Assembly (NCBI GenBank): GCA_016839945.1
Contig: JAEOTE010000083.1
Coordinates: 1-10,560 of the forward strand
Source: Candidatus Heimdallarchaeota archaeon
GTDB taxonomy: Archaea > Asgardarchaeota > Heimdallarchaeia > Heimdallarchaeales > Heimdallarchaeaceae
Reading direction: 5' to 3'
DNA length: 10,560 nt
Shown: piece after piece, positions 508 to 8,789 of the stretch
Layout: every line of letters begins with the position of its first letter
Position numbering within the stretch: position 1 is the first letter of the stretch
Notes under the pieces: model-generated
Seen by the model: only the letters and a program-made list of their open reading frames with translations
Database searches by the model: none
Told to the model about the DNA's origin: nothing
Made by a program: the position numbers and the translations under genes

Positions 508-2343
508 ATGAAAATACAAACTAAAACTGTCATTTTATTATTTCTTATGATTTCTACACTACTATTTCTTACATCAACTGGTGTTTTAGAAACAAGTGGT
601 CAAAATCCAGAACCTGTTATCTATATTACTTTTCTAACACCCCAAACAAATCCAGAACGTATGCAATGGGCAGATTTAATTGAACAAGAAATTGCTAAAA
701 TAGGTATAAATGTCTCCTATGAAGAACTAGCTTGGTGGTCTGACATTGCTCCCCGAACCTGGGATTATCCGTATATTTACTATGATTATATCCCAACTTA
801 TAATGAAGGGGGATTTGATGTACTTTTTATTGGTTGGCCTTGGGAGTTAGACTGGGATCCAACTGGATGGTATGAAACTTCAAGTAGACCTCCTCATGGT
901 GAAAACTATTATCAATATTTTAATACAACATATAATGAGCTATATAATAATTATAAAAATGAATTTAATTACACAATAAGAACACCTTACGCTCATCAAA
1001 TGCAAGCAATATTACATGAAGATTTACCAGCAATTGGTATACTTTATTCTGGAGCACTTTATGGTTTTAGAAATTCCCTTAGTGGAATTGACGATATTCT
1101 ATTATATAATGTTGAACACCGTACAGAAGCTTGGGATGATTCTGATGATCATAAAATAAACATAGGAATCCCATTTAATCTTCAAGGATTTCACACCTTT
1201 CAGGCTGACAATTACATTGATTTGACATGGATGCGACCAGTTTATGGAGGATTATTCCAAAGAGGACAAACTCATCACAAATGGGAACCTGTGATTGCGA
1301 AAAACTATACAATTACTCCAATGGCTTATCATGGAGAAATAAACATAACTGTTTTTCTTGATCCTAATGCTAAATTCAGTGATGGTAATTATGTTCTTCC
1401 AGAAGATGTGATGTATACATATGAACTCCACATGGATACATTTGTAGCTTCAAATTATCGTGAACCAATAACAGATTGGCTTGGAACTACTGGTAATATG
1501 CATATCAAAAACAATGTTCCTGGTGGACAAATTAATTTTATAGTGGAAAACACAACTCAATATCCATTAAGTTTTCTAAGATTTGGAATAATTGATAAAA
1601 GTGAAGTGGAACCGTTAGTTTTAACTCAGGGATATAGTGTTTTTGGAGATTCCCCTGGAACTGGAAATGCTGGTTGGTCACTTGTCAAATCTTGTGGTCC
1701 TTTCAAGGTTTATGATGGTGGTACTCCTTCTGATGGTTATGATTATGTTTCCAGCATTGTCAATTTGGTTCCAAATGCTTTTTGGAATAATAACACTGTT
1801 TCAGGTGGTCAGCAACCATTTCTTACTAATCTTAATATCACATTCATAGGAAATCCAAGTACTGCTTTTGCTGAATTGCTTCTTGGAAACATTGATATTA
1901 TGGATTATGCATACGATTTAGATCCAGTAATCTTTGAAGGTCATGCAGATATTGCAGGAGTTGTAACAAAAACACCTGTGCATCAAGAGCTTTCAATCAA
2001 TATGAAACATCCAATCCTTGGAACAGGGGAATTAACACCTCTAGGTACTGCAGAAGCAGCTAAGAAAATAAGACAAGCTATAAGTCATGCAATTCCTAGA
2101 CAAACAATAATTGATGATATACTTAATGGAACTGCCTTTCCTGGAATTATATCTGTACCAGATTGTGTTATAGAGTTTAATGATGCTCTTCAGCCTTATT
2201 CATATGATATCTCTCTAGCCCTACATTTGATGGAACAAGCAGGATATATACATGTAATCTCAGAATACAACGAATTCAGTATAATTCTCATTGTGGTTTT
2301 TGGAGTTGTTTCAATATATTCTATAAGAAGAATCAAGAAATAA
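508..2343 (+). CDS. ABC transporter substrate-binding protein, family 5 (OppA/DppA-like), N-terminal signal sequence and C-terminal membrane anchor; apparently circularly permuted
   Basis: Family-5 motifs: VYGGL...EPVIAKNY...AKFSDG...PEDVMYTY; SCGPF; KIRQAISHAIPRQ; YSYDISLALHLMEQAG; LIEQEIAKIGINV; FDVLFIGW; QAILHEDLP. Hydrophobic N-terminus and C-terminal TM segment plus RRIKK. ATG508 is preferred over GTG499 because GGTGA (498-502) lies 5 nt upstream of it. Confidence 0.88.
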   Translation: MKIQTKTVILLFLMISTLLFLTSTGVLETSGQNPEPVIYITFLTPQTNPERMQWADLIEQEIAKIGINVSYEELAWWSDIAPRTWDYPYIYYDYIPTYNEGGFDVLFIGWPWELDWDPTGWYETSSRPPHGENYYQYFNTTYNELYNNYKNEFNYTIRTPYAHQMQAILHEDLPAIGILYSGALYGFRNSLSGIDDILLYNVEHRTEAWDDSDDHKINIGIPFNLQGFHTFQADNYIDLTWMRPVYGGLFQRGQTHHKWEPVIAKNYTITPMAYHGEINITVFLDPNAKFSDGNYVLPEDVMYTYELHMDTFVASNYREPITDWLGTTGNMHIKNNVPGGQINFIVENTTQYPLSFLRFGIIDKSEVEPLVLTQGYSVFGDSPGTGNAGWSLVKSCGPFKVYDGGTPSDGYDYVSSIVNLVPNAFWNNNTVSGGQQPFLTNLNITFIGNPSTAFAELLLGNIDIMDYAYDLDPVIFEGHADIAGVVTKTPVHQELSINMKHPILGTGELTPLGTAEAAKKIRQAISHAIPRQTIIDDILNGTAFPGIISVPDCVIEFNDALQPYSYDISLALHLMEQAGYIHVISEYNEFSIILIVVFGVVSIYSIRRIKK

Positions 2344-2381: not shown

Positions 2382-3755
2382 TTATTTAAAAGGCCATTTC
2401 TCAAGCAGCTTCAGATTTTCTTCCAATTTTGCATCTTTGAGAATTTTGATTACTTCTGATTCCATAAGCTTTCTTGGTATCTCTTTCATACTACTTATTT
2501 TTTCTATTAAAACTAAAGCATAAGCTAGTGATAATTTAGCATCAACTTTGCTTATTTTGTCAAAAGTATCTGCAGTTGTGTGCCCCCAACCTCTTCCTAC
2601 TCTGGGATCTGGTTTCTCACCATAGACACACATATTAGGAATTCCTTTGCACATGAAAGGATAATTATCACTTGCAGTGATAATATCTTTTGCAATTATT
2701 GGTTCATATAACAACTCATCTTTAATCGCTTTGATAGAGTTGAAAAGATCTTCATATCCACTACATGTAATTTTTTTTGGAATATGCCCAACTAATCCAT
2801 CAAAATTGATCATTGCTACAACGTTGGAAAGGTCGACTTTATTTGCATAAATAGTAGATCCAACTACACCAAATTCTTCAACAGCAAATGCAATAAAACG
2901 AAGCGTTCTATAGGGTTTGACATTGAATTCCTTAAACAATCTAGTTAATTCTAAGATTACAGCAATTGATGCTGCATTATCTGTAGCACCTTGAGCTATA
3001 TCATGTCCATCATAATGGCCACCAATAACTATAACTTCATCTTCAATTTCTCCTGGTATATCCCAAATAATATGCTTTGATGTTGTTATTTCGGATTTAT
3101 TATTCACATTTATTCTACAATCCAATTCTTTCTTTCGTGATAATTTCTCTTTGATATACTCATATGATTCTTTTGAAATTCCTATTGCTGGTATCTCACC
3201 TATTCTGTTTGACCTTACAGACCCAGTTGGAAAAAGTTGTCCTGGGTTATGATTTGCAAAAACAAAAGCTGAAGCACCAAAATCATAAGCATTTGCGTAC
3301 TTTATTCTTCTGTGAAGCCAACCTTCCTCTGTATCTCCTGAATGAACCATTACAATGTTCCCTGGAATCTCATTCTTTATTCTATTAAGTTCTGTTTCTG
3401 ATCCACCATTTCCATTAATTATAGACCCACTTAACCCTTCGAATGATGTTGAAGGAGCTAAAACAAGTGAAATAGCTGGAAATTCTTGTTTTTCATTATC
3501 AATAATGAGAAATTTACATGCTCCTCTTTCCCATCCTTGATATTCAAATTCATATTCATCAAACTCTACACCTAGATTTGAGAGAAAACTAGTCATGTAT
3601 TCCTGAGCTTCTTTTTCACTTTCAGAGCCAGAAAAACGACTTCCTAATAAACAAAGATCTTTAATTCTGTCAATAATGGAATTTTCAGAAAAAATTCTTC
3701 CTAGAATTTTCTCTGTTTCTAATGATAAACTACCCATAATAAGAAGAAATCTCAA
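2382..3755 (-). CDS. M28 family Zn-metallopeptidase (aminopeptidase) with PA domain, probably cytoplasmic
   Basis: Metal/catalytic motifs GGHYDGH, GATDNAAS, AVEEFG, NFDG, SDNYPF, WGHTTADTFDK; PA-domain-like segment KYANAYDFGASAFVFAN...IPAIGIS. No clear signal peptide. Start is uncertain: TTG3755 or ATG3737. Confidence 0.9.
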   Translation of the reverse strand: MRFLLIMGSLSLETEKILGRIFSENSIIDRIKDLCLLGSRFSGSESEKEAQEYMTSFLSNLGVEFDEYEFEYQGWERGACKFLIIDNEKQEFPAISLVLAPSTSFEGLSGSIINGNGGSETELNRIKNEIPGNIVMVHSGDTEEGWLHRRIKYANAYDFGASAFVFANHNPGQLFPTGSVRSNRIGEIPAIGISKESYEYIKEKLSRKKELDCRINVNNKSEITTSKHIIWDIPGEIEDEVIVIGGHYDGHDIAQGATDNAASIAVILELTRLFKEFNVKPYRTLRFIAFAVEEFGVVGSTIYANKVDLSNVVAMINFDGLVGHIPKKITCSGYEDLFNSIKAIKDELLYEPIIAKDIITASDNYPFMCKGIPNMCVYGEKPDPRVGRGWGHTTADTFDKISKVDAKLSLAYALVLIEKISSMKEIPRKLMESEVIKILKDAKLEENLKLLEKWPFK

Positions 3756-3762
3756 GATAATT

Positions 3763-4029
3763 TTAATTTTGTCCCATGGTCATGAAAAACTGTAATTGCT
3801 CTCTTATGAACGCTTCATCTGCTCCACCAATGATTCTTTGATTGTTAGGTAAAATAATTGTAGGGATAGCAACAATGTCAAATTCCTCTGCTTTACTAAC
3901 ATCATCAGCAATATTGATTACTTCTAATTCCAAGTGACTAGCTTCTGAAATAATGTGCTTTAATACTCCTTCGATGTATGGACACCAGCTACATGTTGGT
4001 GAAGTAAAGAACATTATTTTTAATTCCAT
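3763..4029 (-). CDS. Small thioredoxin-fold protein (archaeal thioredoxin/glutaredoxin-like) with CxxC and KaiB-like C-terminal half
   Basis: FTSPTCSWCP dithiol motif, IVAIPT cis-Pro motif, RIIG; 88 aa; starts 9 nt after the stop of the KaiC-like gene. Confidence 0.88.
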   Translation of the reverse strand: MELKIMFFTSPTCSWCPYIEGVLKHIISEASHLELEVINIADDVSKAEEFDIVAIPTIILPNNQRIIGGADEAFIREQLQFFMTMGQN

Positions 4030-4038
4030 TTTATCTAC

Positions 4039-5451
4039 CTATCCAATAATATCAATTAGTGGTAACTTATCATTGAATTTCACAATCTTTGGTAAGAATG
4101 TAGCTCCAGTTGAACTTTTTACACATTCAATGTAATGATTATAATCTACTCTTGAAAATCTGATTATAATATCAGCTGTTGTTCTTAATCTTGCAAGAAT
4201 TTCTCTACTTATTGCATTGAAATTAAGGAAGGAATATGCAATTGAACCTCTTTCTTTGACATTGAATGATTGTAATGCAAAGTATCTTAAGAAATCTGAT
4301 TCAGTTAAAATATTAGCATCATCAGTTAAATCTCCATACAACACAACACTTTGTTTTCCTTTTCTAAAAGCTTCCATCAGTTCTACTGTAACAGAAATCA
4401 TATCATCTGTAGTCATCAGTTGACTCATTTCTCTAGCTTCTACAGCTGTAACTGAGCGATTATACTTATCGATGAAGACTACATTTCCTTCATTAAGGTG
4501 AGGTAGAATATCTTTCTCAGCTCTCTTGAATTCTTCAACTATACGTGCAGAATGCATATGTACATTGGAATGAATGATTACACCTTTTCCTTCCTCTAAA
4601 TGATGATTCAATGTTGTCAAGAAGAGAGGAAAATAATTTGTCTCACCATCTATCTCAATAAGCACTACGCTTCCTTTTGGAATACCTCCTCCCAATAATT
4701 CATCAAGTCTTAAGATTCCTGTAGTTTCTTCTCTAATTAGCGAAATTGGAGGTTGTTCAGACCTGAAGATTGTTATTCCTTCTTTGCTTATAATAAATCT
4801 ATTTTCAAAATGAGTAGGTTGAGCTGAACGTAATTTCGGCACTGATATTCGTTTAATTAACTGATTATTTTTCAATTCTGATCTTATTTTGATTACACCA
4901 TCAACAAGAAATTCCTCCAATGTTGCATATTCTTCAGTAACTTGAGATTCAGCTGTAAGGATTAAAGTACAACCTTCATTGGTTATCTCTCTAATGAAGT
5001 CAATAAAGCTGCTTCTTGCTGTTTTCTCATATTGGAATTCGGCAAAGAAAGCTGAAATAGAATCAAAAACAACAAGTTTAGCACCAATATCCTGTATTTT
5101 CTTCTTTACTCTAGCAATAATACCAGATAAATCAAATTTATCTGTCTGAACTAAACTTGTTCCAGCAGGTTTGAGTGACATTTTCTCAACAAGTAGAGTT
5201 TTATCTATATATGGTTTGAAATTCATTCCAAAGGACTCTACATAATCCACTAGTTTATCTGGATCAACTTCTGTTGATATAAACAAAACTGGGATTTCTT
5301 GTTTTAAAGCACCCATAGTTATAAAGAGTGAAAGAACTGTTTTTCCTGCTCCTGCTGTGCCTTTAATTGCATAACAAAAACCAGGACGTAATCCACCATC
5401 AATCATATTATCTAATTCTTCAATTCCAGTGGAAATAGTCATATTCCTCAT
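4039..5451 (-). CDS. KaiC/RAD55-family double-domain RecA-fold ATPase; second domain degenerate
   Basis: ISTGIEELDNMIDGGL, Walker A GTAGAGKT (aa31-38), ISTE, Walker B VVFDSIS, EEFLVDGVI, KLRS. A second repeat starts TTGILRLDELLGGGIPKGSVVLI (aa243-265) but has no GKT. Confidence 0.9.
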   Translation of the reverse strand: MRNMTISTGIEELDNMIDGGLRPGFCYAIKGTAGAGKTVLSLFITMGALKQEIPVLFISTEVDPDKLVDYVESFGMNFKPYIDKTLLVEKMSLKPAGTSLVQTDKFDLSGIIARVKKKIQDIGAKLVVFDSISAFFAEFQYEKTARSSFIDFIREITNEGCTLILTAESQVTEEYATLEEFLVDGVIKIRSELKNNQLIKRISVPKLRSAQPTHFENRFIISKEGITIFRSEQPPISLIREETTGILRLDELLGGGIPKGSVVLIEIDGETNYFPLFLTTLNHHLEEGKGVIIHSNVHMHSARIVEEFKRAEKDILPHLNEGNVVFIDKYNRSVTAVEAREMSQLMTTDDMISVTVELMEAFRKGKQSVVLYGDLTDDANILTESDFLRYFALQSFNVKERGSIAYSFLNFNAISREILARLRTTADIIIRFSRVDYNHYIECVKSSTGATFLPKIVKFNDKLPLIDIIG

Positions 5452-5542: not shown

Positions 5543-6094
5543 ATGGCTCCAAAATACACAGCACAACTTGTTGGTACAAGAATAATAGTGTGGGATATAG
5601 ATCAGAGTATGGAGCTATATTCTTCTGGTTTTTTTGGAAAACCAATAGGAGTTAGAAAACCTCAACTAGGGGATCAATTCAGAGATCCTTCAGAACTTTC
5701 TTATTTTGAAGCTGTTTATCTATTTGAAAATAAGAAACTAAGAATATTAGATGAAGATGGAAAAAAAATATCGAAAAAAGCTTTTCTTGAGAGATGTCAT
5801 GAACAGTATATGAATTTTGATAATAAAATGGGCGTATATAAATTCTTGAGAAACCTTGGGTATATAGTTAGACCTGGTTTGAAATTTGGTGTAGATTTTG
5901 CTGTGTATATTAAAGGTCCTGGACTTGAGCATTCACCATACATGGTTCAAATCATAGAAAAAGAAGGAAAGATTGACCCTATTGAATTAGTTAGGGCAGG
6001 AAGGTTAGCAACAACAGTTAAGAAAAATTTTGTTATAGCTTCTAAGATTAAGAACAAATTACATTTCTTTGTTTTTAACAGATACAAACCTTGA
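5543..6094 (+). CDS. endA: tRNA-intron (splicing) endonuclease, catalytic subunit
   Basis: LSYFEAVYL; YKFLRNLGYIVRPGLKFGVDFAVY...GPGLEHS; RLATTVKK. Putative catalytic triad Y122/H130/K161. Confidence 0.95.
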   Translation: MAPKYTAQLVGTRIIVWDIDQSMELYSSGFFGKPIGVRKPQLGDQFRDPSELSYFEAVYLFENKKLRILDEDGKKISKKAFLERCHEQYMNFDNKMGVYKFLRNLGYIVRPGLKFGVDFAVYIKGPGLEHSPYMVQIIEKEGKIDPIELVRAGRLATTVKKNFVIASKIKNKLHFFVFNRYKP

Positions 6095-6098
6095 TCAC

Positions 6099-6137
6099 TT
6101 TTTGGAGTTTTTTCTAGACGCTGTTTTGTCTTGTTTA
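6099..6137 (+). terminator. Possible oligo-T terminator after endA
   Basis: Several T-runs just after stop 6094. Confidence 0.3.
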
Positions 6138-6192
6138 CTTGGAGATTACCACAAAATTAAATAAAAGATATGCAATCCTTTATCTGTCATAA

Positions 6193-7380
6193 ATGAGTTC
6201 TCAAATGAGTTGGCAAGTTGATGTCTTAGAATTCGCACAGAAGTGTGTATACTGTGGTTATTGTTCAGTTTGTCCAACATACAAAGAGCTCAAATGGGAA
6301 AACTACCATCCAAGAGGTATTATAGACCAAATAAAACTCTATTTTACGGAGGGAACAAAAGATGATTTGCAGAAAGATGTATCCAAATCTCTTTTTGAAG
6401 CTATTTTCGCTTGTACTATGTGTAAAGCTTGTGAAAATATCTGTATAGTTGACTTACCTCTTTTGAAAATTTGGGAACAAGTCCGACAAGAAGCATTTAA
6501 ACGAGGAAGATGGAACCCTCAACTACTTTCTCTGTATAATAAAGCCAAAGATACTCACAATATTTATGGTCTCCCTGCTGAAGAAAGGCTTTCTTGGGCT
6601 GGTATGGTAGGAATGAATTTGGCTAGAAGAACACTAAAAAAAGCTCCTCTTGCTTACTTTGTAGGGTGTCAAGCTTCTTATTCAGGTAAAATGATAGATA
6701 TTCCTGCAAGTGTTGTTACAATCTTAAGAAAATCGAAAGTTCCTTTTACAGTATTAGGAAATGAAGAGTGGTGTTGTGGTTCTCCTATATTCTTAGCAGG
6801 TGGTTATTCTGTTGGAAAAACTTTTGCTAAACACAATCTTGAACAATTAAAGAAACTAGGAGTAAAAAGAATAGTTACAGCTTGTTCTGGATGTTACAGA
6901 GCATTCAAGGTTGTTTATCCACGAATTTTGGGAGAGAAGTGGGACATAGAGGTTCTCCATATAACAGAACTTACAAAAGAATTATTAGAAAACAAGAAAT
7001 TAAAGATAAAAAACAAAATAAGTGAAAAAATTACTTTCAAAGATCCTTGTGAATTAGTTAGACATTGTGGTTTAAGTGAGCCCTTAAGAGATGTGATAGA
7101 AAAAATTCCAAATGTAAGATTTGAAGAATTACCATCTAACCGAGATGATGCTTTGTGTTGTGGAGGAGGAGGGTTACTGAAACTCAATAACGCAGAACTA
7201 GTTAAGGAAGTTAATGATAGACTTATGACTGAAATAGAATTCACAGAAGCAGATATCGTTACAAATGGTTGTCCTACTTGCCTTGATACTATTCAATATG
7301 GTGCAAAACAACGGGGATTAGAGATTGAAGTAATAGATGTCTCTGAGCTTATAAAAAGACTTGTGGAGGATAAAAAATGA
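6193..7380 (+). CDS. Fe-S oxidoreductase, GlcF/GlpC/HdrD family (two 4Fe-4S motifs plus two CCG domains)
   Basis: CVYCGYCSVCP and CTMCKACENIC; CCG-domain motifs YFVGC, EWCCG, TACSGC, DPC, LCCGGGG, NGCPTC. Confidence 0.9.
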   Translation: MSSQMSWQVDVLEFAQKCVYCGYCSVCPTYKELKWENYHPRGIIDQIKLYFTEGTKDDLQKDVSKSLFEAIFACTMCKACENICIVDLPLLKIWEQVRQEAFKRGRWNPQLLSLYNKAKDTHNIYGLPAEERLSWAGMVGMNLARRTLKKAPLAYFVGCQASYSGKMIDIPASVVTILRKSKVPFTVLGNEEWCCGSPIFLAGGYSVGKTFAKHNLEQLKKLGVKRIVTACSGCYRAFKVVYPRILGEKWDIEVLHITELTKELLENKKLKIKNKISEKITFKDPCELVRHCGLSEPLRDVIEKIPNVRFEELPSNRDDALCCGGGGLLKLNNAELVKEVNDRLMTEIEFTEADIVTNGCPTCLDTIQYGAKQRGLEIEVIDVSELIKRLVEDKK

Positions 7381-8789
7381 CATTGAGAAAGAAAGCTCGG
7401 AATAAGTTTGTTAAGCATCTAGGCAAGCAATTTAGAGATGACAAAACTCTCCTTCAAGTCTACTCTCGTGATATGGCAGAATTACCTTCTACAACTAAAC
7501 TACTTATAAGAAATATTCCAGATGGAATTATACTTCCTAGAAATATAAAGGACATTCAACAAGCTTACAAAGTTGCAAATGAAACCAAAGTTCCTCTCAT
7601 ACCAAGAAGTGCAGGTACATCAGGATTTGGTGGAAGTATACCTTATAAAAAAGGTGTAATCCTTGACGGAAAGGGTTTAGAAAGTGATATTATTGTTGAA
7701 CCTTTTGATCAATCTGTTTTAGTTAGTCCATCAATGGTTTTCAGTGAATTACAAAGATACCTTAAGATGCAAGGTGTATCTCTTTGTGTTTTTCCTTCCA
7801 GCTACTATTCAGCTACTTTAGGTGGATTCATTGCTCATGGAGGATATGGTGTGGGTAGTGCACAATATGGCGGAGCGATTGATCAAATCTTAGCAATTGA
7901 AGTAGTCCTCCCTAATGTGGAATTAGTAAACTACACTGAAAGAGAAGATATTGAGCTTATAGTTGGTTCAAATGGAACCTTAGGTTTAATTACTAAAGTA
8001 CAACTAAAAATAAAATTCGATATACCCTTAAAACACCGAGGGTGTACATTTGATTCACCTAAAGAATTGGAAGATGGGTTGAAAGTTTTAGCAAGCATAA
8101 ATCCATACTCAATATGGATTTTAAATCCAAAACATGTTGCAGAAATGAATGATGCATTTGGTTTTACACTTCCAAATAGATACGTTGTTTTAATATCAAA
8201 AGAAGTGAGTTTTGAGGAAGAAGAGAGTGATTTTCACGCAAGTTTTAATCAAGCAATAAGAGATGGAGGAGGTCAAATTCTAGATAAAAGATATACTGAT
8301 AAAATCTGGGATATCAGATATAAGACATTTACAATGATAAAAGATTATCAAGATTTCCTTGTTTCAGAACTAATCCTCCCCATTGAAAAAAGTGGGAAGT
8401 ATCTCCAAAAACTTGCATCAGAGTTTAATGGACAACTCCATTTCGAAGGAGAGGTGATAAATAACAGTCATTTCTCTTTGCTCTTATTCTTATATTTTGA
8501 CGAGAAGTTAACTCCTTTAAAAAAGACAATAATAAATCTGAAATTATACAAAACAGTAATGAAGGGGAAGAAAGTTGGTGGATTTCCATATAGTACTGGA
8601 CTTTGGTTTTCAGGTTACTATTCAAAGATTTTCGGAAAAGAACAATACAAAAGATACAAAGAGCTCAAAAAGAAAGTTGACCCAAAAAATATCAGTAATC
8701 CTGGTAAGGTTATATCCCCAAGAGTTAGGATATTTCCATTAATTACATTTAAATTTGCTCTCAAAATAGCTAGTTGGTTAATAAGATGA
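7377..8789 (+). CDS. FAD-binding oxidoreductase, GlcD/D-2-hydroxyacid dehydrogenase-like (VAO/PCMH superfamily)
   Basis: PRSAGTSGFGG, PSSYYSATLGG, GSNGTLGLIT, C-terminal DPKNISNPGK. ATGA overlap with the upstream gene at 7377-7380. Confidence 0.9.
   Translation: MTLRKKARNKFVKHLGKQFRDDKTLLQVYSRDMAELPSTTKLLIRNIPDGIILPRNIKDIQQAYKVANETKVPLIPRSAGTSGFGGSIPYKKGVILDGKGLESDIIVEPFDQSVLVSPSMVFSELQRYLKMQGVSLCVFPSSYYSATLGGFIAHGGYGVGSAQYGGAIDQILAIEVVLPNVELVNYTEREDIELIVGSNGTLGLITKVQLKIKFDIPLKHRGCTFDSPKELEDGLKVLASINPYSIWILNPKHVAEMNDAFGFTLPNRYVVLISKEVSFEEEESDFHASFNQAIRDGGGQILDKRYTDKIWDIRYKTFTMIKDYQDFLVSELILPIEKSGKYLQKLASEFNGQLHFEGEVINNSHFSLLLFLYFDEKLTPLKKTIINLKLYKTVMKGKKVGGFPYSTGLWFSGYYSKIFGKEQYKRYKELKKKVDPKNISNPGKVISPRVRIFPLITFKFALKIASWLIR

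Follow-up and report, generated by a model that had tools for sequence, protein, structure and literature searches.

What does a gene for a small thioredoxin-like protein do directly behind the gene for a KaiC-family ATPase, and could its product act on that ATPase as KaiB acts on KaiC? The question is raised by a contig of a Candidatus Heimdallarchaeota archaeon (JAEOTE010000083.1, assembly GCA_016839945.1), all 10,560 bases of which – part of a 3.0-Mb genome that is 88% complete – were analysed here and are called the window below. KaiC-like ATPases are regarded as central hubs of archaeal signalling, and an input is known for almost none of them. The two proteins in question, an ATPase (P0002) and a small protein with a CxxC dithiol (P0001), had been singled out in an original prediction as a candidate redox-gated KaiB–KaiC-like module. 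On balance, we lean towards a reading in which they form a dedicated module of the family Heimdallarchaeaceae – a redox-linked switch that resembles KaiB–KaiC, with a small protein outside the KaiB family and with no phosphorylation clock. The conserved pair probably interacts, and it may work in the manner of KaiB–KaiC with a redox input.

The anatomy of the two genes, their family assignments and the conservation of the pair are matters of observation. Both open reading frames (ORFs) and the gap between them lie where the original prediction had placed them (Table 1); in relatives, the gap measures roughly 9 to 30 nucleotides, and many orthologs of the ATPase start at what is here its second ATG, at position 5442. 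Of the 30 Heimdallarchaeaceae genomes, 28 encode the ATPase, which occurs in all five genera, and the thioredoxin gene comes directly after it in every one of the 21 full-length public loci with downstream DNA, all of them from Heimdallarchaeota. Within the genus, this order is seen at 18 of 22 loci (the others stop at a contig end or at the end of the locus); as the whole neighbourhood is syntenic there, the pairing at this level says little. Relatives with 51–60% identity (loci L039, L040 and L041), however, retain the pair between different flanks. Further out, a word-based homolog search with P0001 yielded close relatives only, whereas a search by profile, run on 1.84 billion representatives, reached further: three distant metagenomic members with a CAWC motif are encoded about 10–30 nucleotides downstream of two-domain ATPase homologs that are 54%, 33% and 29% identical. 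As a control, a thioredoxin-like ORF adjoins two of 55 other archaeal KaiC-like loci, both from Atabeyarchaeia. With 21 of 21 loci, five genera and three distant pairs, the conservation of the gene pair is strong.

Two observations made along the way concern individual members of these sets. The top match of the profile search was a protein of 3932 residues (P0163) with 38 matched thioredoxin-like stretches, followed by multi-repeat proteins of 412–1741 residues. In Ca. Heimdallarchaeum aukensis (CP084166, about 1,148,500–1,152,500; locus L040, G065:C1), there are two copies of the part encoding the ATPase C-terminal domain and the thioredoxin gene, at a distance of exactly 3,000 bp; the second of them belongs to an ORF of 874–886 residues that opens with an ornithine/arginine decarboxylase N-domain; this doubling is either a tandem duplication that created a fusion gene or an assembly artefact.

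By sequence comparison, the likeness of the ATPase to KaiC lies far above chance. Its residues 6–232 score 173 bits against the Pfam KaiC family (PF06745; E = 6.6e-51), and KaiC chains in the PDB match it with E-values of 1e-31 to 4e-34. The KaiC-like segments on which the original prediction had drawn are all present, namely FDLSGIIARV (residues 106–115), FDSISAFF (129–136), EEFLVDGVI (179–187) and KLRS...FIISKEGITIF. In 21 orthologs, the invariant positions of the N-terminal domain include Walker A, E61 (which aligns with KaiC E77), D130 of Walker B, K206 and R208 of the KLR motif, and the FDLSG stretch. Judged by these residues, the N-terminal domain is catalytically competent.

The C-terminal domain presents a different picture. 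In the AlphaFold2 (AF2) model of the ATPase, which has a predicted local distance difference test score (pLDDT) of 83, with most C-terminal blocks above 85, its secondary-structure elements follow the same order as those of the N-terminal domain, and Foldseek aligns the model with full-length KaiC over about 490 columns (E = 1e-31). Its P-loop position is degenerate, with the Lys and Thr missing and with E266, E270 and Y273 invariant in the family; the site is degenerate also in homologs of 29–33% identity. The domain is conserved to about the same degree as its N-terminal neighbour (0.78 versus 0.75), and among the 301 Asgard genomes sampled strong matches to it were confined to family f1 (28 of 28 genomes). 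The description of the ATPase as a 'double-domain KaiC' is thus right as to its two KaiC/RecA folds; the second domain, however, has no Walker A motif. Because the C-terminal P-loop is degenerate and the N-terminal domain intact, the ATPase is best described as a two-tier KaiC-family protein with one live half. Inactivated KaiC domains are known to exist (PMC5847659).

This architecture bears on the idea, also put forward for this locus, that the module might be a timer. The ATPase stays below the cut-offs of both circadian KaiC models – with scores of 107 versus 546 for TIGR02655 and of 154 versus 408 for NF006799 – and does not combine two P-loop domains with the CII autokinase sites S431/T432, as circadian KaiC does. 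Cycling of KaiC-type autophosphorylation is not to be expected because the CII-like domain is without a P-loop, which makes a timer unlikely. As the CII-like domain cannot bind ATP canonically, the labels 'clock' and 'timer' were dropped for the module.

The live domain, in turn, carries the feature that first suggested a KaiB-like partner. The KaiC B-loop is the docking site of fold-switched KaiB and of the SasA thioredoxin-like domain, and for binding, F122 and D123 of KaiC are of importance (bioRxiv 10.1101/2020.06.17.158394; PMC6378743). In the ATPase, the loop KPAGTSLVQTDK, which had been proposed as the equivalent of this KaiB-binding loop, occupies residues 94–105, just before FDLS. It aligns with the KaiC CI B-loop almost without gaps, being two residues longer, and has the same length as the loop of KaiC proteins that adjoin true KaiB; many other single-domain KaiC-like proteins are without such a loop. 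F106 and D107, which correspond to KaiC F122 and D123, are invariant or nearly so. Alignment, loop length and the F–D pair hence agree in supporting the proposed likeness.

The second protein belongs, by sequence and by model, to the small archaeal thioredoxins of MJ0307 type and is predicted to be redox-competent. The motifs previously read from it – LEVINI, AEEFDIVAIPT, LP..RIIG and the CSWC site at residues 13–16 (nucleotides 3993–3982) – are in place. Across 20 orthologs the two cysteines and the cis-Pro are invariant (Table 1), and W15 and P17 nearly so; distant members (P0164, P0166 and P0173) carry CAWC and retain both the cysteines and the cis-Pro. P0001 passes three Pfam gathering cut-offs: 30.0 bits on PF00085 (cut-off 23.5), 28.9 on PF13192, Thioredoxin_3 (24.8), and 28.6 on PF05768, Glrx-like (26). 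Its best NCBIfam match is TIGR00411, the MJ0307 family, at 53.6 bits; this is below the equivalog cut-off of 92.75, which by sequence makes P0001 a divergent subfamily relative to the TIGR00411 equivalogs. The closest PDB matches are 1FO5 (E = 5.9e-11) and 1NHO (E = 2.8e-7), and KaiB is not found among the best 60 PDB matches listed. The AF2 model (pLDDT 90.4) has the β-α-β-α-β-β-α order of a minimal thioredoxin fold, and the Foldseek top 50 are thioredoxins throughout, with a template modelling (TM) score of about 0.8. AF2 yields the thioredoxin fold alone, with which a second, KaiB-like ground state is still compatible.

A protein that retains every catalytic hallmark of a thioredoxin could be an ordinary disulfide reductase that shares the operon, forms no physical complex with the ATPase and serves other substrates. 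We regard this as unlikely. Two canonical thioredoxins are already encoded elsewhere in the genome (93.7 and 86.6 bits; active sites WCGPC and WCAPC), so that P0001 appears as an extra, specialised paralog. The two genes remain neighbours even where ATPase identity has fallen to about 30% and where the flanks have been rearranged. Furthermore, the β3–β4 hairpin of P0001, LPNNQRIIG, is specific to the family, conserved within it, and situated inside the modelled interface discussed below. As for relatives within the same genome, the closest paralog of P0001 is the N-terminal Thioredoxin_3 domain of a 521-residue protein with V4R domains (G000:C186:2903-4465; L002 1465-3027).

The small protein had also been cast as a thioredoxin-to-KaiB intermediate, and an allied possibility is that it belongs to KaiB itself, or to a stem branch of KaiB that has not yet lost its CxxC. 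In the proposed scoring against both kinds of profile, P0001, which passes the Thioredoxin cut-offs, fails that of the KaiB family PF07689 (22.5 bits, cut-off 27, covering profile positions 18–70 only) and scores 12.2 on the KaiB model TIGR02654, whose cut-off is 145.3. In favour of a KaiB affiliation, there is this weak match itself, and five orthologs exceed the PF07689 cut-off with 28.7–30.5 bits (profile positions 18–78, mostly 28–78). The same profile, however, gives 24–34 bits on many Asgard proteins of roughly 95–150 residues, and sub-cut-off matches to it (E up to 1) occur in 10 of 14 control genomes, the cut-off being passed only in Synechococcus. Judged from such scores, sub-threshold KaiB matches are what ordinary thioredoxins yield.

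Comparisons with self-built hidden Markov models (HMMs) point the same way: the family scores 85–98 bits on unrelated small thioredoxins as against 13–25 bits on KaiB, and with the KaiB HMM values of up to 24.7 bits are obtained for other small thioredoxins as well. In profile–profile alignment with hhalign, the family matches small thioredoxins over 84 gapless columns (E = 4e-35). Its match to KaiB has a probability of 93.8% (E = 1.7e-7), which again speaks for kinship, but it spans 39 columns (residues 32–70) with a three-residue gap, and generic small thioredoxins match KaiB better than the family does (E = 1.2e-9, 76 columns). From this comparison it follows that the family has no closer affinity to KaiB than other thioredoxins have. 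The gap falls in the β3–β4 region, where KaiB is three residues longer than P0001 in the stretch from PT to RIIG; to a thioredoxin of the MJ0307 type, it aligns gaplessly.

The joint tree that had been called for, comprising the family, KaiB and small thioredoxins (88 rows, 98 columns, in a quick and a careful version, with thioredoxin rows that form a biased set, being those found by the family's own profile), is uninformative on this point. The family forms its own clade within an unresolved thioredoxin backbone; the KaiB sequences group together with good support, on a long branch (2.15) whose place in that backbone the tree does not fix. The approximately unbiased (AU) test leaves a clade of KaiB plus the family unrejected (p = 0.87 in the quick version; p = 0.49 in the careful one, with a log-likelihood difference of +0.41), as a KaiB affiliation would have it; a control clade of KaiB and an arbitrary thioredoxin group is also unrejected (p = 0.36), so the test is powerless on the placement of KaiB. 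The notion of an intermediate is therefore neither supported nor rejected: by HMM, hhalign and fold, the protein falls with the thioredoxins and resembles KaiB no more than unrelated small ones do, and the tree and AU test carry no power either way. Against a KaiB or a KaiB stem branch also stand the Foldseek matches, thioredoxins without exception, and the presence of true KaiB, at 60–83 bits, elsewhere in the phylum; we hold this origin to be very improbable. Membership of P0001 in KaiB itself was rejected on the HMM, hhalign and fold evidence.

The true KaiB genes are worth describing in their own right. They lie at 1465–1752 (-) of locus L054 and 1489–1740 (-) of locus L055 (genomes G202 and G164, Asgard family f14), had genome-search scores of 82.6 and 60.7 bits, respectively, and are the only clear full-length KaiB matches in the sampled Asgard genomes. 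Each adjoins an ORF of about 485 residues that aligns with KaiC. By hmmscan, the KaiB protein P0312 scores 83.1 bits.

If the small protein is a thioredoxin, does it nonetheless dock where KaiB does? The original prediction had proposed to look for B-loop docking, and a modelled complex of ATPase and thioredoxin does place the small protein on the loop, with an ipSAE (a score of predicted interfaces) of 0.79, whereas the best of three controls stayed at 0.00. Of 80 solved complexes, 58 attained the score mark, as did two of 110 mismatched pairs; these counts are only roughly valid here because our own alignments were used. Three runs share at least 98% of contacts, and the partner has a pLDDT of at least 87. 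The modelled interface comprises ATPase residues 91–117 and 148 and thioredoxin residues 8–15, 40–56, 63–70, 74 and 78; on the thioredoxin side, this is the face formed by the CxxC and the cis-Pro, together with the family-specific hairpin. Docking of the thioredoxin on the B-loop is thus predicted, and the pass of the model is one of likeness and predicted docking rather than of binding.

Several results weigh against a redox-linked switch built on this docking. The pass may reflect memory of solved complexes, because structures of KaiB–KaiC CI and SasA–KaiC CI exist (5JWO, 5JWQ, 6X61, 8FWJ). The ATPase interface is no more conserved than the average of the N-terminal domain (permutation p = 0.55), and the excess conservation of the thioredoxin interface weakens from p = 0.011 to p = 0.06 once the catalytic residues are left out. 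Insertions of B-loop length are found also in some KaiC-like proteins without a thioredoxin neighbour. A search for a disulfide target in the ATPase found no cysteine in the interface loop; C26 and C443, both outside the modelled interface, are conserved in Heimdallarchaeaceae, yet are replaced by Ser and by Leu/Gln, respectively, in the homologs of 29–33% identity. As the loop is free of Cys and the conserved cysteines are lost in distant homologs, a model in which the thioredoxin reduces the ATPase is left without a target.

The same results – an ATPase with no conserved cysteine target, and a loop whose conservation does not measurably exceed that of the remaining domain – are what an ordinary reductase sharing the operon would lead one to expect. 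The complex score argues against it, with the same reservation as to memory. Another possibility is that the protein is a structural, redox-independent subunit seated on the loop, its cysteines being kept for stability or metal binding. Escherichia coli thioredoxin offers a precedent, as a fixed accessory on T7 DNA polymerase, and so does KaiB. Consistent with such a role, the model docks the active-site face, the interface loop lacks Cys, and another Asgard family has a Cys-free thioredoxin-fold partner (see below). Yet both cysteines, the Trp, the Pro next to them and the cis-Pro vary hardly or not at all, even at about 40% identity, a pattern expected from selection on redox chemistry; a purely structural subunit accordingly seems to us a decidedly unlikely explanation.

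How, then, might the redox-linked switch that we favour work? The KaiC-family ATPase would form a ring, as its family suggests, in which the N-terminal domain alone would bind and hydrolyse ATP, while the inactivated C-terminal domain would probably supply a second, non-catalytic tier. The thioredoxin would dock on the B-loop of the live domain through its CxxC, helix 2, the cis-Pro strand and the LPNNQRIIG hairpin, at the site where fold-switched KaiB and SasA's thioredoxin-like domain bind KaiC CI. The thioredoxin, through its dithiol or disulfide state, and the ATPase, through its nucleotide state, would then control each other's access to the interface; redox gating and the direction of control are what we infer rather than what the model displays. 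The outcome would be a redox-linked ATPase switch that resembles KaiB–KaiC with the redox chemistry kept.

A bolder version of this scheme, which we put forward as a doubtful idea, makes the redox-active thioredoxin a KaiB-type regulator. Oxidation of the CxWC site would gate its seat on the B-loop of the half-dead KaiC ring or, alternatively, the nucleotide state of the ring would free the active site. Together with the Cys-free partners of other Asgard archaea and with true KaiB, it might then belong to a living series of KaiB-type regulators that arose from working thioredoxins.

The features on which these arguments rest are collected in Table 1, along with two neighbouring genes. The gene for an M28 peptidase begins with a TTG start 7 nucleotides past the thioredoxin stop, on the same strand, and is possibly co-transcribed with the pair. 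In the genus and in L041 it comes next after the pair, and in L039 and L040 it is absent from that position; it lies outside the conserved pair and is no fixed member of the module. On the other side, the genes for a tRNA-splicing endonuclease, a CCG/4Fe–4S protein and an FAD-oxidase (window positions 5543–8789) are near the pair also in L039 and L041, where their order and orientation vary; in L041, a GcvH-like gene accompanies the CCG/4Fe–4S and FAD-oxidase genes.

Table 1. Positions of the gene pair, its functional elements and two adjacent genes in the window.
Feature	Position	Strand	Basis
Two-domain KaiC-like ATPase P0002, 470 residues	4039..5451	(-)	PF06745 173 bits; PDB KaiC chains; AF2/Foldseek
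N-terminal KaiC/RecA domain, residues 1–235	4747..5451	(-)	Alignment to KaiC CI; invariant residues
Walker A GTAGAGKT, residues 31–38	5338..5361	(-)	G31, A33, G34, G36, K37, T38 invariant
B-loop equivalent and FDLSG helix start, residues 91–117, predicted thioredoxin docking site	5101..5181	(-)	Alignment to KaiC CI; complex model
C-terminal pseudo-ATPase (inactivated KaiC-like) domain, residues 236–470	4042..4746	(-)	AF2 fold; no Walker A
Degenerate P-loop position E-I-D-G-E-T-N-Y, residues 266–273	4633..4656	(-)	KaiC there: G-x-x-G-x-G-K-T
Spacer, 9 nucleotides (gtagataaa), from ATPase stop TAG to thioredoxin ATG	4030..4038	(-)	
Small CxWC thioredoxin P0001, 88 residues	3763..4029	(-)	Pfam thioredoxin scores; PDB 1FO5; AF2; Foldseek
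CSWC active site (C13-S-W15-C16)	3982..3993	(-)	C13, C16 invariant in 20 orthologs
cis-Pro P56 of A-I-P-T	3862..3864	(-)	Invariant in 20 orthologs; within predicted interface residues 50–56
M28 peptidase with PA domain	2382..3755	(-)	PF04389 103.6 bits
tRNA-splicing endonuclease gene, diverging upstream of ATPase	5543-6094		

For the wider question of what KaiC-like hubs respond to, the module – found across Heimdallarchaeaceae, among the closest known relatives of eukaryotes – supplies a testable candidate input, namely thiol redox state, conveyed via a dedicated thioredoxin. The proposed site of delivery is identical with that of KaiB and SasA in the clock of cyanobacteria. Should binding and its redox dependence prove true, the pair would provide a mechanism for an archaeal KaiC-type switch and a functional bridge between thioredoxins and KaiB, as well as a small soluble protein pair suited to biochemistry and structure work; should they not, it would be a well-conserved operon with no assigned role.

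Other Asgard archaea place different partners beside KaiC-like genes. In the Atabeyarchaeia loci L112 (2673–4391) and L146 (CP147779, CP147780), a gene for a CGFC thioredoxin/glutaredoxin-like protein immediately precedes a KaiC-like gene with a single domain (PF06745, 234 bits), which is followed by one for a Gtr1/RagA/Arf-like small GTPase; further upstream is a gene for a 152-residue protein without a Pfam match. As in the present pair, a CxxC thioredoxin adjoins an active KaiC-like gene with an insertion of B-loop length. The differences are that in Atabeyarchaeia the thioredoxin gene is the upstream one, the KaiC-like protein consists of one domain and a GTPase gene comes next, whereas the present ATPase joins two KaiC-type domains and the pair has no GTPase neighbour. 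In locus L167 (969–2065; genome G067, Asgard family f23), a Cys-free thioredoxin-fold protein of 97 residues, with FRTQRTPKYH replacing the CxxC segment, is encoded 5 nucleotides upstream of an active KaiC-like gene of 267 residues, after which comes a 387-residue Walker A protein. As a Cys-free thioredoxin-fold gene adjoins an active KaiC-like gene in this other family, the partner slot appears to be kept across lineages.

Among better-known systems, KaiB–KaiC shares with the Heimdallarchaeaceae pair a small thioredoxin-fold protein encoded beside a KaiC-family ATPase, and the two have in common the loop, with its conserved F–D pair, on which P0001 is modelled, chiefly via its C-terminal half. 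In contrast to KaiB, the partner here keeps the CxxC and cis-Pro and is a thioredoxin by sequence, without the longer β3–β4 segment of KaiB; in addition, the ATPase gene comes first, its second domain has no P-loop, and KaiA is not present. The thioredoxins of the MJ0307/MTH895 type (1FO5, 1NHO; TIGR00411) resemble P0001 in their four-strand minimal fold, CxxC, cis-Pro and gapless alignment, whereas P0001 is set apart by its unusual C-x-W-C site, by the LPNNQRIIG hairpin and by its fixed place beside a KaiC-like gene. Finally, the pair conforms to a pattern of archaeal KaiC-like ATPases with thioredoxin-family partners, both in its general arrangement and in having an inactivated KaiC domain; what distinguishes it is the fusion of active and inactive halves throughout Heimdallarchaeaceae, together with a CxWC partner gene downstream.

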